A DNA stretch of 64,000 bases from Candidatus Limnocylindria bacterium (GCA_038209995.1 JBBQXD010000003.1:89079-153078), one strand, 5' to 3'; positions 48,611 to 53,734 are shown, counted from the first letter of the stretch. Notes: generated by a model not told the origin, from the letters alone. Made by a program: numbers and translations.

Positions 48611-49534
48611 GTGGCAGCGCGCGCGGGTTGGCTGACGCCGGCCGTCTTCCTCACCCTGGGCCTCATCTGGGGCTCGTCGTTCCTGTGGATCAAGATCGCG
48701 CTGCGCGAGATCGGGCCGGCGACTCTCGTCGCGGAGCGGATGACGCTCGGTGCGATCGGGATGGTCGGCTACCTTGCGCTCATCCGACAGCGCCTGCCGC
48801 GAACGGCGCGTGAGCTGGCGCCGCTCGCCGTCGTCGGCCTCATCAACGCCGGCCTGCCGATCTTCCTCATCAGCTGGGGCGAGGTCCACGTGGACTCCGG
48901 CACCGCCGCGGTCCTGAACTCGCTCGTCCCGCTGTTCAGCCTGCTCATCGCCGGAGTCTGGCTGCGCACCGAGCCGGTGACGGCGCTCCGCGTCACCGGC
49001 CTGATCCTCGGCTTCGGTGGCGCCGCGATCCTCGCCAGCCGCGAGCTGTCACTCACCGGGGATCCGCTGGGCCTCGTCGGCGCGGTCGCGGTCGTGCTGG
49101 CGGCAGGCTCCTACGCGCTGGGCGCGAGCTACGCGCGGCATCGGATCACGACCACCCATCGGTATGTCGTCGCCGGCGGGACGCTGGTCTTCGCCGCGAT
49201 CTACCTGTGGGTGCTCGCCCTCATCAGCGAGTGGCCGATCGGCGTGCCGGTGCGCGTGGATGGGATCGTCGCCGTGCTGTGGCTCGGCCTCCTCGGCAGC
49301 TTCGTGGCCTACCTGTGCTACTTCTTCCTCATCGAGCACCTTGGCGCGACTCTGGCGAGCATGGTCACCTATCTCTTCCCGGTCGTGGGCGTGGCCCTGG
49401 GGACGACCTTCCTGAACGAGGCATTCGACATTCGGATGGCGATCGGCACCGTGCTCGTGCTGCTCGGGATCGGGGTGGTCAGCCTTCGCTATGATCCGCG
49501 CGTGAGCCGCGAACCTCGTGGGGCCGGCGAGTGA
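48611..49534 (+). CDS. DMT superfamily transporter (EamA-like, 10 TM)
   Basis: Two EamA repeats ([15 protein letters not shown] ...; [23 protein letters not shown]). Confidence 0.7.
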
Positions 49535-51639
49535 GTGACGCCGGCGACCGCGAACCGCGGCCGGATGACGAGCAGCCGGCCGAAACCGATTGGCCGGCGG
49601 CCGATATGACTCCCCGCTCGCCCGACCCCGACCCACCGTCCGCCGATGACGACTGGGCATGGCCACGTCGCGACCTGCCTCGGGAAGAGGAGGCGGAAGA
49701 CTGGCGCCCCGCGGAGCCGTGGCGCGACAACCCCTCCTGGAACGACACCCCCAGCGACGCCCCGTTGAACCGCGATCCCGAGCCATTCTGGGTACGCGAG
49801 CCGGAGCTGCCGGAACCGCATTCGGCACCGTCCTGGGAGCGCGAGCCGGAGCCGCCGAAACCGGTAGCGGCGCCGTTGTGGGAACCCGAGCCGGAACCAG
49901 ACCCTGAGCCAGAGCCCGAACCTGAGCCCGAACCAGAACCTGAGCCCGAACCAGAACCGGAGCATGCGCCTGCGCCTGCGCCCGAGCCGGAACCGGAACC
50001 ACCGCCGGAGCCCGAGCCGGAACCGGAACCCGAACCCGAACCGGAACCAGAACCCGAGCCCAAACTGGAACCAGCGCCCGAACCGGAAGCCGAGCCAGAG
50101 CCGGAGGGCGCGCCGGAGCCGGTTGCGGAACCAGCGCCCGAGGCTCCGGTAGAGCCTGAGTCCGCGGCACCACCGACACTGGCGGTAGCTGGCGAGCCCG
50201 CGCCCGAAACTGCCGCTGAACCCGAGCCCACGCCACATGAGCCGGTGGCCCCGGAAGAGGCACCGCCCAAGCGGCCCACGTGGGAGGCGGACGTCGAATC
50301 GAAGCCGGGCTTCGCTGAACCAGCACCGGAAGCAGCAGCCGCCCATCCGACAGCGGCGCCCGCCCCGTCTCCGGTGGTCGTGCCGCCCGTCCCCGTGGAG
50401 GTAGAGGCCGCCACCCAGGCTCCCTGGTCAGCGCCGGTGGAGGACATGCCGGCAATCGAGGGTGGCCACCCGCGGATGACCTGGGATCGGCGCCGGATGG
50501 GAGAGCGCCGCAGGCCGACGACCTCGGAGCAGGCCGTGCCGTGGCTCATCGGGATCGTCCTGGCGATGGCCGGCATCGTGCTCGTCCTCCTTGCCCTCAT
50601 CTACACCTCCGAGAACGGGCACCTTACGACGGTAAGCGGGTCGCCGTCGGCGGGGTCGTCGATCGTCGTCGTGCCGAGTGAAGGCAGTGGCGCGGCGGCG
50701 GCATCCGCCTCGCCGACCGACGGCGCGAGCACGACGGCCAGTCCATCGGCCCTCGGGCCGACGTACGGCGCCCTGGAGATGATCTACCTCAGCCGCACCA
50801 TCGCCTCGGCGCCGATCTACGTGTTCCGCCGTGACTTCAGCGTCACCCAGGAGGCAGAGACCCTCGCCCGGGCCGACCAGGGCGTCGAGCAATTTGCCTG
50901 GGCGCCCGACGGCCGCATCGGCGCGGGGCTCATCTCCGGCCGCGTCCTGGCGCTCCAGCCCGGACACGCTGCCCGCGCGCTCGGAGACGGCATGGTCGAC
51001 ATCTCGTTCAGCACCGACTCGCGGACCGTGTACGCGGTCCGTGTCACCCGCAATGGCGCGAACGACAAGGCCGACGTCGTCGCGGTCGAGTGGGCAACCG
51101 GAGCCCAGCGCACCGTCGGGTCGGTGACCTATCCACATCCCCAGGTAGTGGCCGACCCGGCCCTGAAGGAGGCGCAGTTCATCGACGATGGCGGGCTGGT
51201 GCGGCTCTACCCGACGGTCGACAACCGCCTCGTGCTCTGGATCCTCGGCGCGCCGTCGACCTACCTGGTAAGCGCCGCTGGCGGCTCGCTGGCGCCGATC
51301 GCCGGCCTGCCGAAGCTGGTCTCGCCGGACGACCAGTGGACGGTGCAGGTCAAGGAGTCCAAGGGCACGACGACGCTGACGCTCGCCGACCGCGCCGGAA
51401 GCGCGCGTGCCGCGACGAGCATCACCGGCCTCGTCAGCCACATTCGTTGGGCGCCGAACGGCTCGGAGGTCGCGTTCACGCTCGGGCATACCGGCCAGAA
51501 CGGTGGCGTTGTCCAGAATCTCTACGTCTGGGACCTCGTCGACGCCAAGGCGCCGATCGAGATCACGAGCAACGGCGCCTCCTTCGGCGCCGAATGGCGT
51601 GGTGCCGCGGTAAGGTGGGTCAGTGAGCCCGCGTCCTGA
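49531..51639 (+). CDS. single-pass membrane protein with an N-terminal acidic (Glu-Pro)n low-complexity region and a C-terminal beta-propeller-like (TolB/PD40-like) domain
   Basis: About 35 EP dipeptide repeats with Trp-containing W-x-x-P-E-P motifs (aa 1-330). Basic stretch plus TM ([24 protein letters not shown]). Then about 340 aa with repeated beta-strand-rich blocks. ATGA overlap with the upstream EamA gene. Confidence 0.6.
49890..50100. repeat. hexanucleotide tandem repeat tract (GARCCN)n inside the CDS, encoding (EP)n
   Basis: gagcccgaaccagaacctgagcccgaacc ... . Near-perfect 6-nt periodicity over about 210 nt. Confidence 0.7.
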
Positions 51640-51961
51640 GATCGTCAATCCCATCGGCGTCGAGCTCGATGAGACCGCGCGCCGCATGCGGATCCGATGG
51701 GATGACGGCCACCTCGGCGAGTGGGGCTGGACCGAGCTCCGACGCGCGTGTCCGTGCGCCCTGTGCGCCGGCGAGGGCAGCATGCCCGGCCTCGTATCGC
51801 TCGAGACGGCATTCACCGCACCCCAGGTGACGCTCGAGCGGGTGAAATGGATCGGGCGCTATGCCCTCGCCCCGATCTGGGCCGATGGCCACGACACCGG
51901 GCTCTTCACGTACCTGCGGCTGCGCGAGCTCTGCGCCTGCCCGGAGCACGGCGCCGCATGA
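51623..51961 (+). CDS. DUF971 domain protein (gamma-butyrobetaine hydroxylase N-domain-like)
   Basis: 112 aa with a conserved CxC ... C pattern ([13 protein letters not shown] ... CACPEHG) and a W/H-rich core typical of DUF971. Overlaps the upstream stop. Confidence 0.55.
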
Positions 51962-52785
51962 CGACGCGGTTCCGCGAGCCGTTCACGCTCGCGCTCGGCG
52001 GGGGCGGGGCGCGCGGCTGGGCGCACATCGGCGTGGCGCGCGCCCTCGAATCGGCCGCGCTGCGCCCGGCATCGATCGTGGGCACCAGCATGGGCGCCGT
52101 CGTCGGGGCCGGCCTCGCCGCCGGGTACCCGACCTCCCGCATCGAGGAGGTCGCGCGCCGCGTGCCGGTCTATCGGCTCATCGGCCGCCGGGGGCGCTAC
52201 GCGCTCTTCGACAGCCGGCCGGTGCTCGAGGTGATGGGCCGCGAGCTCGGCAATCCGCGGATCGAGGAGCTCGGGCTGCCGTTCGCGATCACGACCTTCG
52301 ACCTCGTGACCGGCTCGACGATCGCGATTCGCGAGGGCGATCTCGTCGACGCGCTGGCGCGCAGCATCGCGGTGCCGCTCTTCTTCCCGCCGACGCACGA
52401 CGACGACGGCGTGTGGTGCGACGCCGGACCGTGGGAGGCGGTGCCGATCAGCGTGGCCCGCGATCTGTGGCCCGGGCGGCCGGTGATGGGCGTGCGGGTG
52501 GACGCCCCGAAGCCATCGCTGCTGGGCAGTCCACTCGGCTCGCGCGTGCTGCGCGCCGTGGCGGGGCGCCTCGGCGAGGCGGGCGAGGCGCTCACCGCGC
52601 GGCGGTACGTCGCGCTCCTCGCGGCGCGCTGGGCGGACCCGGTCCACGAGGAGCCGGCCGACCTCCTCATCGAGCCGAAGCTCGGCATGACGAGCGCGTG
52701 GCAGTTCAGCCGCGTCGGACCGATGGTGGAGCGCGGCGAGCGCGACGCCCGGGCCGCGCTGCGGGAGGCATCGGTCCATGGCTGA
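51958..52785 (+). CDS. patatin-like phospholipase
   Basis: Oxyanion hole GGGGARG and nucleophile elbow GTSMG, with a later DGG/DAG catalytic Asp (WCDAG). ATGA overlap with DUF971. Confidence 0.75.
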   Translation: MTTRFREPFTLALGGGGARGWAHIGVARALESAALRPASIVGTSMGAVVGAGLAAGYPTSRIEEVARRVPVYRLIGRRGRYALFDSRPVLEVMGRELGNPRIEELGLPFAITTFDLVTGSTIAIREGDLVDALARSIAVPLFFPPTHDDDGVWCDAGPWEAVPISVARDLWPGRPVMGVRVDAPKPSLLGSPLGSRVLRAVAGRLGEAGEALTARRYVALLAARWADPVHEEPADLLIEPKLGMTSAWQFSRVGPMVERGERDARAALREASVHG

Positions 52786-53734
52786 TGGTGGTGGGCTCCT
52801 CCTCGTCCATGCCCATCCCGACGACGAGGCGATGGGCACCGGCGGCCTGATCGCCACGACCGTCGATGCCGGGCGACGGGTCGATCTCGTCACCTGCACC
52901 GATGGCGCCGAGGGCGAGATCCACGACCCGACCCTCGACCACGACGAGGCCCGCCCCCGGCTGGCGGCGATCCGGCGCGAGGAGCTCGCCTGCTCGCTCG
53001 ACGCCCTCGGCGCGGGGCGCGTGAACCTGCACCTGCTCGGCTACCGCGACTCCGGGATGATGGGCACCGAGGCCAACGAGCACCCCGACTCGTTCTGGAA
53101 GTCCGACCTCGACGAGGCGATCGGGCGCGTGGTGCGCATCGTTCGTGAGGTGCGGCCGGCGGTGATGGTCGGCTACGACAGCAAAGGCGGGTACGGGCAC
53201 CCCGATCACATCAATGCACACCGCGTGGCGGTGGGGGCGTTCGAGGCGGCCGCTGACGGGTCGCGCTACCCGGAGGCCGGGTCCCCCCACGAGGTCGCGA
53301 AGCTCTACGAGACCGCGTTCGCCCGCGAGGCCCGGTTCCGCCTCATGACGGCCATGAAGGAGCGTGGCATCACGCTGCCATGGGACTTCGACGAGGCCAT
53401 CGAGCAGTACGCCGCCGACGAGCTCAACCCGTCCAATGCCGCCCCGGTTCAGCAGGCTGGGGAGCAGCTCGCGGCGGGGGAGGAGGTTACGGGGTTCGGC
53501 ACCTCGGAGGCGGACATCTCGACGACCGTCGACGTCTCGGCGGTCGCCGGTCGGAAACGCGCCTGCATGGCCTGCCACCGCACCCAGGCCCAGGATCTGG
53601 GCTGGCTGCTGGCCCTGCCCGACGATCTCGCTGCCGGCGCGCTCAGCCCCGAGACGTTCGTGCTCCGTCGCTGGCCCGGCCACGAGCCGATCGACCCTGG
53701 CTTGCGCGAGACGCGCGTCTTCGCGGGGCTGTAG
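52778..53734 (+). CDS. PIG-L/LmbE family N-acetylglucosaminyl deacetylase (MshB/Mca-like)
   Basis: Hallmark LLVHAHPDDE, then HPDH (GYGHPDHINAH) zinc ligands. 8-nt overlap with the patatin gene. Confidence 0.75.
   Translation: MADGGGLLLVHAHPDDEAMGTGGLIATTVDAGRRVDLVTCTDGAEGEIHDPTLDHDEARPRLAAIRREELACSLDALGAGRVNLHLLGYRDSGMMGTEANEHPDSFWKSDLDEAIGRVVRIVREVRPAVMVGYDSKGGYGHPDHINAHRVAVGAFEAAADGSRYPEAGSPHEVAKLYETAFAREARFRLMTAMKERGITLPWDFDEAIEQYAADELNPSNAAPVQQAGEQLAAGEEVTGFGTSEADISTTVDVSAVAGRKRACMACHRTQAQDLGWLLALPDDLAAGALSPETFVLRRWPGHEPIDPGLRETRVFAGL

Follow-up and report, generated by a model that had tools for sequence, protein, structure and literature searches.

The window analysed here is a 64,000-nt stretch of DNA from a Candidatus Limnocylindria bacterium (GCA_038209995.1 JBBQXD010000003.1:89079-153078), with a G+C content of about 71% all along it; coordinates below are those of the whole window. 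At 49531-51639 on the + strand it contains a complete coding sequence, in a single open reading frame (ORF), for a 702-aa protein to which all residue numbers refer. The product is best classed as an undescribed membrane protein that joins a PD40 propeller to a disordered, acidic tail bearing a repeat, not as a new kind of genetic switch, and it is predicted to be a type II (N-in/C-out) bitopic membrane protein. The start codon is GTG, and the start shares 4 nt (GTGA) with the stop of the upstream EamA-family gene. This choice of start is backed by the N-terminal sequence VSD.RDR.PRP, which is kept in the related loci L001, L010 and L088. A Logan contig (SRR19962013) encodes the same 702-aa product with 100% nucleotide identity over 3,484 nt. 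It is the sole other assembly of the exact locus. The identity confirms the sequence and is uninformative on heterogeneity within the population.

For the C-terminal half of the protein (aa 330-702), over 285 homologues with 48-77% identity were found. No precomputed Pfam domain is recorded for any of them, and those with a source name are mostly Candidatus Limnocylindria. A scan of one genome per species recovered 154 loci, almost all in metagenome-assembled genomes (MAGs) of Limnocylindria/Chloroflexota, with a few in bins otherwise named. Of 1.84 billion cluster representatives screened exhaustively with a hidden Markov model (HMM), only 142 reached E <= 1e-3. The family itself is followed by a sharp gap, past which every weak match is a genuine PD40-repeat protein; the family profile reaches such proteins at E = 1e-7 to 1e-3. 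The protein therefore belongs to a narrow family that is specific to Candidatus Limnocylindria (Chloroflexota) and is described by no Pfam or NCBIfam model. No Pfam family matched the window protein at E <= 0.01, and the gathering threshold of PD40 (PF07676) was not reached. PD40 was weakly matched in five of 60 family members, with a best E of 0.13. Pfam and NCBIfam searches with the whole protein, the C-terminal domain and the 60 members returned only weak matches to DPPIV_N, PD40, TolB and Atxe2, none near thresholds, and a profile search of PDB sequences gave no match at E <= 1.

Members of the family share an invariant core, composed of a juxtamembrane motif, a transmembrane (TM) helix, a stalk and a propeller, to which a disordered acidic tail is attached. 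The Arg-rich juxtamembrane motif, defined by alignment, occupies aa 316-337 (50476-50541; all features of the protein are on the + strand). Its consensus is W(D/N)P(R/K)xxGxRRRPTTAEQAVPW, with invariant columns at W318, R326, R327, T330, T331, E333, A335, V336, P337 and W338. The single TM helix lies at aa 338-358 (50542-50604) by sequence, and AlphaFold2 (AF2) places a helix at aa 336-362 in the full-length model and at aa 331-362 in a partial model. It contains no His and no SHLS motif. A Ser/Thr/Ala/Gly/Pro-rich stalk follows at aa 363-415 (50617-50775), recognised by its composition (21% Ser, 18% Ala, 12% Gly, 11% Thr, no Lys or Arg); it is presumably extracytoplasmic and has a predicted local distance difference test (pLDDT) score below 50. 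The rest of the protein, aa 416-697 (50776-51621), is predicted to fold as a divergent PD40/TolB-like beta-propeller with about 25 strands and one inserted helix (aa 544-552). Its invariant residues include D435, F436, W457, D460, G461, E547, D552, R558, D564, S636, H637, R639, W640, Q662 and W667. The best structural matches of the predicted C-terminal domain of about 285 aa are to TolB, and the PD40/TolB-like propeller proposed in an initial annotation of this DNA is thereby supported.

The tail is placed in the cytoplasm, and the stalk and propeller outside, because of the positive-inside charge bias and the signal-anchor look of the short family members. The 25 residues leading up to the TM helix contain seven Lys and Arg; the 25 that follow it contain none. 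P0144, a minimal member, has a positively charged 12-aa N-terminus (MSGPWDVKVHGDRRRPTTAEQAVPW) that leads directly into the TM helix. The initial annotation had put a Glu-Pro (EP) tract ahead of a single TM helix, unlike the spacer of TonB. That description agrees with our data, as the helix does follow the tract; the charge distribution predicts a cytoplasmic location for the tract, in contrast to the periplasmic spacer of TonB.

At 330 aa the tail of the window protein is among the long ones, though not the longest, in the family. Its extreme acidity, remarked on from the outset, is evident in the 86 Asp and Glu against 17 Lys and Arg in the N-terminal 315 aa. The far end carries a cap (aa 1-49; 49531-49677) in which the motif W-P-x-x-D-[LM] occurs twice, first as WPAADM (aa 21-26) and again as WPRRDL (aa 44-49). 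The family consensus of the cap is MSDPRxPDDGPxWPERDL, in which W44 is invariant and D13, P45 and D48 are near-invariant. Among homologues with tails of at least 45 aa, 96 of 129 have W[PS]x1-3[DE] within the first 60 aa. The cap is followed by a region of Trp-acidic linear motifs (aa 50-119; 49678-49887), recognised from the clade alignment and from a 45-nt period reported by Tandem Repeats Finder (TRF), which corresponds to about 2.4 copies of a 15-aa unit, W-x-R-E-P-E-x-P-x-P, at 49788-49895. Trp-acidic motifs had been noted here as W-x-x-P-E-P; with 12 Trp in the tail such motifs are indeed present, but W-x-R-E-P-E describes them better. The first 103 aa of the tail align well within the window's clade, unlike the EP part, and eight of nine Trp and blocks such as RDP.PFW.REPE.PEP are invariant among the window protein, L001, L010 and L088.

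The remainder of the tail (aa 192-315; 50104-50475) is rich in Ala, Pro and Glu and appears disordered from its composition and an AF2 pLDDT mostly below 55. In the full-length model aa 1-335 have no secondary structure, with pLDDT mostly below 50 except in the EP tract. Across the family, tails longer than 100 aa average 23% Pro, 17% Glu, 8% Asp and 3.5% Trp. A Trp content of 3.5% is high for a disordered region. The distal tails of L010, L089 and L001 share a conserved, possibly helix-forming segment (for example KPTTAADRVAAFLAELRAASRP) that is missing in the window protein, so tails differ by whole modules even within a clade.

The EP repeat spans aa 118-191 (49882-50103) and consists of 37 in-register GAR-CCN hexamer units. 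Exact EP is encoded by 28 of them, and the others encode AP, DP, PP and similar dipeptides. An early count of about 35 Glu-Pro copies therefore holds if the near-units are included and fails for exact EP. The EP runs are (EP)3-DP-(EP)9 at aa 118-143, followed by (EP)3 (aa 152-157) and (EP)9 (aa 160-177), with (AP)3, PP and scattered EP elsewhere in the repeat. The whole protein has 44 EP dipeptides, 43 of them in the 330-aa tail. In 10,000 composition-preserving shuffles of the tail the number of EP dipeptides was 19.3 +/- 3.3 with a maximum of 31, and the longest run was five, compared with the nine observed. The repeat seen in the initial annotation is thus real and far exceeds what the shuffled tails contain. 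No other (E/D-P) tract of at least four units occurs in any frame of the 64-kb window. AF2 assigned neither helix nor strand to the EP tract (pLDDT 64-75), which we read as an extended conformation.

At the DNA level, the tract had been described as a near-perfect 6-nt repeat that is prone to slipped-strand variation. The first part of this description is wrong, and the second is not supported. TRF reports a period of 6 with matches of only 69-70%. Positions 1, 2, 4 and 5 of the GAR-CCN unit are nearly invariant and positions 3 and 6 vary freely, and adjacent units are identical in only two of 36 comparisons. Perfect period-6 repetition extends over at most 18 nt, and that tract encodes Ala-Pro (GCGCCT) instead of EP. 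Among perfect direct repeats the longest is a 41-nt match with a period of 18, a duplicated three-unit block. A long DNA tract of identical units, as a contingency locus would have, was not found. The EP tracts of the relatives examined are likewise all scrambled at wobble positions, including (EP)44 of L078 (264 nt, on a 978-kb contig), (EP)34 of L001 (204 nt) and (EP)31 of L032. Their longest perfect hexamer stretches are 11-23 nt, with the exception of L041 at 47 nt. L078 has no non-synonymous change across its 44 EP units. The window's two 54-nt EP runs can be spanned by short reads, so assembly bias is probably not the explanation of the scrambling.

Codon usage within the tract departs from that of the surrounding genes. 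In the window tract 60% of Glu codons are GAA, compared to 8% in eight neighbouring coding regions (Fisher p = 1.6e-9), and CCA and CCT together make up 37% of Pro codons, compared to 10% in the same regions. Pro codons in EP tracts are spread over all four possibilities. At 25 other loci, GAA accounts for 31% of Glu codons in the tracts and 9% in the propellers of the same genes (p = 2.6e-13). This rare-codon enrichment could stem from selection against repetitive DNA, from a mutational effect or from a need to spread the demand on tRNAs.

On the opposite strand, long ORFs overlap the repeat at 49479-50600 (-; Gly-Ser-rich, 373 aa), 49049-50455 (-) and 49489-50346 (-). The products of these ORFs, 285-468 aa long, are Gly-Ser-rich, Arg/Ala/Pro-rich or Arg/Phe/Gly/Leu-rich. 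We rejected the antisense and alternative-frame ORFs as genes because the wobble pattern fits the + frame only; such ORFs are shadows that the GC-rich GAR-CCN repeat casts in other frames, and annotating them as genes would be a mistake. A scan for promoters and terminators yielded no promoter and one terminator at chance level, and no family reached its gathering score in an Rfam scan of the 64-kb window.

Family members have tails of anywhere between 12 and about 620 aa. Their EP runs vary from 0 to 44 units, and uninterrupted runs recur in scattered members. The longest run is 44 units in L078, 34 in L001, 31 in L032, 17 in L069, 13 in L022 and in L058, and 12 in L041. Within the window's own clade (73-78% propeller identity) the window protein has runs of 9, 9, 3 and 3 units, L001 has 34, L010 has at most 3 and L089 at most 4. 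The cap is retained in many full-length members that are entirely free of EP (P0022, P0026, P0039 and P0041). Taken with the existence of members whose tails are 12-30 aa long, these EP-free homologues show that the EP tract is a non-conserved, recurrent expansion and does not define the protein, an outcome that the initial annotation itself had named as counting against its reading. The suggestion that the length of the spacer varies is borne out by the same comparisons, with indels confined to the tail.

Variation among close relatives was assessed in clusters of other family members at 90% identity or more, the window protein being missing from the clustered collection; the clusters draw on different samples, and assemblies, not reads, were compared. 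The full-length sizes within five clusters were 652/656/662, 491/497/500, 484/487/491, 474/504/521 and 513/515 aa. All internal indels in such clusters fall in the tail and measure 1-47 aa (for example 4, 6, 7, 15, 20 and 47), with none in the TM helix or the propeller. At the DNA level they are mostly blocks of 12-141 nt instead of single hexamers, which also argues against a slippage reading of the tract. Among the assemblies compared, length variants within one sample were not seen. All members of the P0117 cluster have 607 aa. One sequence, P0268 in the cluster of P0034, is exceptional in that from about residue 550 onward its C-terminal sequence bears no relation to the propeller, probably because the contig is chimeric or frameshifted. 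A scan of metagenome contigs for close relatives of the window locus returned four loci, distant or partial, none fit for a within-species comparison of the tract. From these patterns of substitution and length we conclude that the Glu/Pro alternation is probably kept by purifying selection on the protein, that the repeat DNA does not appear to be homogenised by ongoing slippage, and that length changes seem to take the form of multi-unit block indels on a strain-to-species time scale.

What the protein does may be approached through analogy. On balance we lean towards a wall-side propeller that is tethered to a cytoplasmic polyanionic tail serving as spacer and docking platform, a mirrored version of the logic of HubP/FimV. 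The propeller would be displayed outside the membrane on a flexible stalk, with the EP tail in the cytoplasm. The EP tract would form an extended, polyproline II (PPII)-like polyanionic spacer of about 0.3 nm per residue, which would give a length of about 5-6 nm for each (EP)9 and of up to about 25 nm for aa 118-201. The PPII-like conformation is suggested by analogy with the modelled rod of procyclin (PMC2115453) and with TonB domain II (PMC12204202). Such a spacer could hold the cap and the Trp-acidic docking motifs off the anionic membrane, toward cytoplasmic partners. The propeller may bind something in the wall or outside, in which case the protein would connect an extracellular binding module with partners in the cytoplasm. 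Tract length would shift when blocks of several units, such as the 18-nt unit, are duplicated or deleted in frame, over evolutionary or strain time scales and not as a high-frequency switch. Selection would act on the amino-acid alternation, and the DNA would be kept, or would have become, non-repetitive.

Several points weigh against this picture. The predicted topology depends on the positive-inside rule and on analogy. A literature search on Limnocylindria returned nothing on the cell envelope or on this protein. The roughly 25 strands imply about six four-stranded blades, a count taken from the strand list and not from coordinates. The rest of the window tail is intermediate in codon usage, with 32% GAA, and codon diversification could in part reflect a general relaxation of codon bias in the disordered region. 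Finally, some members have tails of only 12-30 aa, which indicates that the tail is dispensable for core function.

The main rival holds that the tail is neutral low-complexity growth, functionally inert and tolerated because it sits at the cytoplasmic N-terminus of a signal-anchored protein, whose length drifts by replication slippage, and that only the core matters. Drift of this kind would account for tails of 12 to about 620 aa with EP runs of 0-44 units, for EP-free full-length homologues, for indels among sequences at least 90% identical and for a tail without predicted structure. It does not readily account for EP tracts in which only synonymous sites vary, as in L078, for a cap that persists at the distal end even though tail length varies greatly, or for the invariance of eight of nine Trp and of whole motifs in the close clade and the family-wide maintenance of tail composition. 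We regard neutral growth as unlikely. A different proposal, which goes back to the initial annotation, takes the hexanucleotide repeat to be a microsatellite that works as a contingency-type, rapidly tunable spacer, with slipped-strand mispairing altering EP copy number at high frequency within populations. The hexamer periodicity found by TRF is real, copy number is very different between relatives, indels adjoin EP runs in near-identical sequences and all changes are in frame. A contingency spacer is nonetheless improbable in view of the poor matches between units (69-70%), the two identical neighbours in 36, the 18-nt limit of perfect hexamer repetition, the rare codons that break the repeat in the window and at 25 other loci, and indels that are mostly blocks of 4-47 aa. 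The identity of the sole other assembly over 3,484 nt and the constant 607-aa length in the P0117 cluster point the same way.

Many anti-sigma factors and one-component membrane sensors have a cytoplasmic N-terminus, one TM helix and an extracytoplasmic sensor. The window protein has the same layout, and its invariant juxtamembrane motif might suit a tail that sequesters a regulator and releases it when the propeller senses a ligand. We consider anti-sigma-type signalling of this kind very improbable. The initial annotation had already observed that no anti-sigma zinc-binding motif is present, and this is correct, as the 702 aa include no Cys and thus no HxxxCxxC of the zinc anti-sigma (ZAS; RsdA/RskA-like) type. 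There is also no anti-sigma Pfam domain, the tail is disordered, and no sigma factor gene was found among the annotated genes of the window or of the L001 locus or among conserved neighbours in 81 related loci. A TonB/TolA-like force transducer, or a TolB orthologue of the Tol-Pal system, has in its favour an EP segment like TonB domain II and a propeller most similar to TolB, and is still extremely improbable. The EP segment lies on the N-terminal side of the TM helix, with a predicted cytoplasmic location, and the protein has neither SHLS motif nor TM-helix His, TonB_C or TolB_N. Scores on the TolB model TIGR02800 are 13.6-15.6 bits against a cut-off of 343, with all PD40/TolB models below threshold, and exbBD, tolQRA and pal are absent from the annotated genes of the locus and from the neighbours recovered in related loci. 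Domain, motif and gene-context tests thus reject TonB, TolB and anti-sigma identities for this protein.

If the protein is a propeller tethered to a cytoplasmic docking tail, its closest match in probable way of working is HubP/FimV, a resemblance of design and not of ancestry. In HubP/FimV, the polar hub proteins of Vibrio, Shewanella and Pseudomonas, a TM helix connects a domain that binds the wall with an acidic, unstructured repeat region, at the far end of which sits a conserved element for client binding; the size and repeat number of the acidic region differ markedly even among closely related species (PMC12918733). The window protein, as predicted here, similarly has a wall-side domain, one TM helix and a large, unstructured, acidic repeat-bearing cytoplasmic region of variable size. 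It is mirrored relative to HubP/FimV, with the tail N-terminal and the outside domain a C-terminal PD40 propeller. It lacks LysM and FimV/TPR domains (Pfam) and a signal peptide, and there is no homology. The HubP/FimV repeat is about 46 aa long and the terminal domain is folded, whereas the window protein has a dipeptide repeat and a short linear terminal motif.

TonB is known for its PPII-like domain II, its SHLS motif and its TonB_C domain (PMC12204202). The window protein resembles domain II in its alternating Glu-Pro, expected to form an extended PPII-like spacer by a single TM helix. The TonB spacer, however, is periplasmic, comes after the TM helix, is built of both EP and KP segments and is accompanied by SHLS and TonB_C, none of which applies to the window protein. 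Compared with TolB, the window protein lacks a signal peptide, the TolB_N domain and the tol-pal context, and uses an N-terminal TM helix as its membrane anchor. In Trypanosoma brucei, EP procyclin (PARP) contains (DP)2(EP)22-29, modelled as a rod of 14-18 nm (PMC2115453). Two members of the family weakly match Pfam Trypan_PARP through the repeat alone. Procyclin is a eukaryotic, glycosylphosphatidylinositol (GPI)-anchored component of an extracellular surface coat and is unrelated outside the repeat. Mycobacterium tuberculosis PknD has a cytoplasmic N-terminal kinase domain, one TM helix and an extracytoplasmic six-bladed NHL-type propeller. With the topology predicted here, the window protein would share the cytoplasmic N-terminal part, the one TM helix and the outside propeller with PknD, and would differ in having a disordered acidic tail without an enzymatic domain in place of the folded kinase.

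It is tempting to speculate further that the protein is a Limnocylindria-wide hub, in which the propeller is fixed to a wall or surface ligand, a cytoplasmic, membrane-tethered polyanionic PPII "ruler" of evolvable length presents the cap and the Trp-acidic motifs so as to recruit cytoplasmic clients at a set distance from the membrane, the protein encoded by the adjacent DUF971 gene is a possible client, and selection keeps the repeat DNA non-repetitive. We think this whole chain rather unlikely to hold. If it did, Terrabacteria would possess a hub that mirrors HubP/FimV without being homologous to it.

Limnocylindria are abundant, uncultured Chloroflexota of soil and freshwater, and the protein described here is found class-wide among them in a conserved context while being absent from family databases. 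It combines in one protein a frozen folded core (48-77% identity) and a tethered disordered tail that varies about 50-fold in length. Purifying selection appears to be visible on its dipeptide repeat while codon usage breaks the DNA repeat, and the EP tract should not be catalogued as a phase-variable microsatellite. If the tail is a spacer and docking platform, the HubP/FimV design would extend to an unrelated lineage, and the family would offer a natural length series for testing how disordered spacers are tuned.

Public sequences of the family need to be read with care. In L001 (4805-7323), L087 (1159-3598) and L088 (1327-3748) at least one frameshift or stop in the Pro-rich tail interrupts the gene, so that gene calling splits it into two or three. 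All three are ENA assemblies with 'contig_N' names, L001 being from an MFD MAG, and we assume that they are of long-read origin. The short-read loci L010 (1142-3610) and L089 (3-2405) each have one intact ORF of at least 800 aa, and we therefore rejected the split in L001 as a real two-gene arrangement. The breaks in L001, L087 and L088 are most likely indel errors of the assumed long-read assemblies. As a consequence, public annotations of the family (364-440 aa) are often truncated, and where long-read MAG assemblies split the gene its annotation is unreliable.

The gene sits in a compact cluster on the + strand of the window. The EamA-family transporter gene (48611-49534) lies upstream. The downstream gene (51623-51961) encodes a DUF971 protein (GBBH-like_N, PF06155), and its start overlaps the stop of the propeller gene by 17 nt. 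Further along lies a PIG-L/LmbE-family gene (52778-53734). Between 48611 and 53734, the EamA gene, the propeller gene, the DUF971 gene, a patatin-like lipase gene and the PIG-L gene are chained by overlaps of 4, 17, 4 and 8 nt, an arrangement that suggests one translationally coupled operon. In the 81 related loci the neighbours include a PIG-L deacetylase (71 loci), an O-methyltransferase (48), CN_hydrolase (45), patatin (41), an Fe-dependent repressor (31) and EamA (30), the EamA and patatin genes being optional.

The closest association is with DUF971. This gene lies immediately downstream in 79 of the 81 loci, and the two exceptions stop at a contig edge. By a first-start heuristic its start falls between -100 and +43 nt from the stop of the propeller gene, mostly overlapping it. 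The DUF971 protein carries a CxCxxC motif, and DUF971 has been proposed as an Fe-S cluster maintenance factor from mutant fitness data (bioRxiv 10.1101/072470). The linkage is kept in the minimal-tail members L063, L068, L070 and L072, so any functional link concerns the core and not the EP tail. Against the mycothiol equivalog model MshB, whose cut-off is 224 bits, the PIG-L protein scored 216 bits, and against Mca it scored 193 bits, far above its scores on the bacillithiol BshB models. These scores hint at a mycothiol-like low-molecular-weight thiol pathway in this Chloroflexota lineage.

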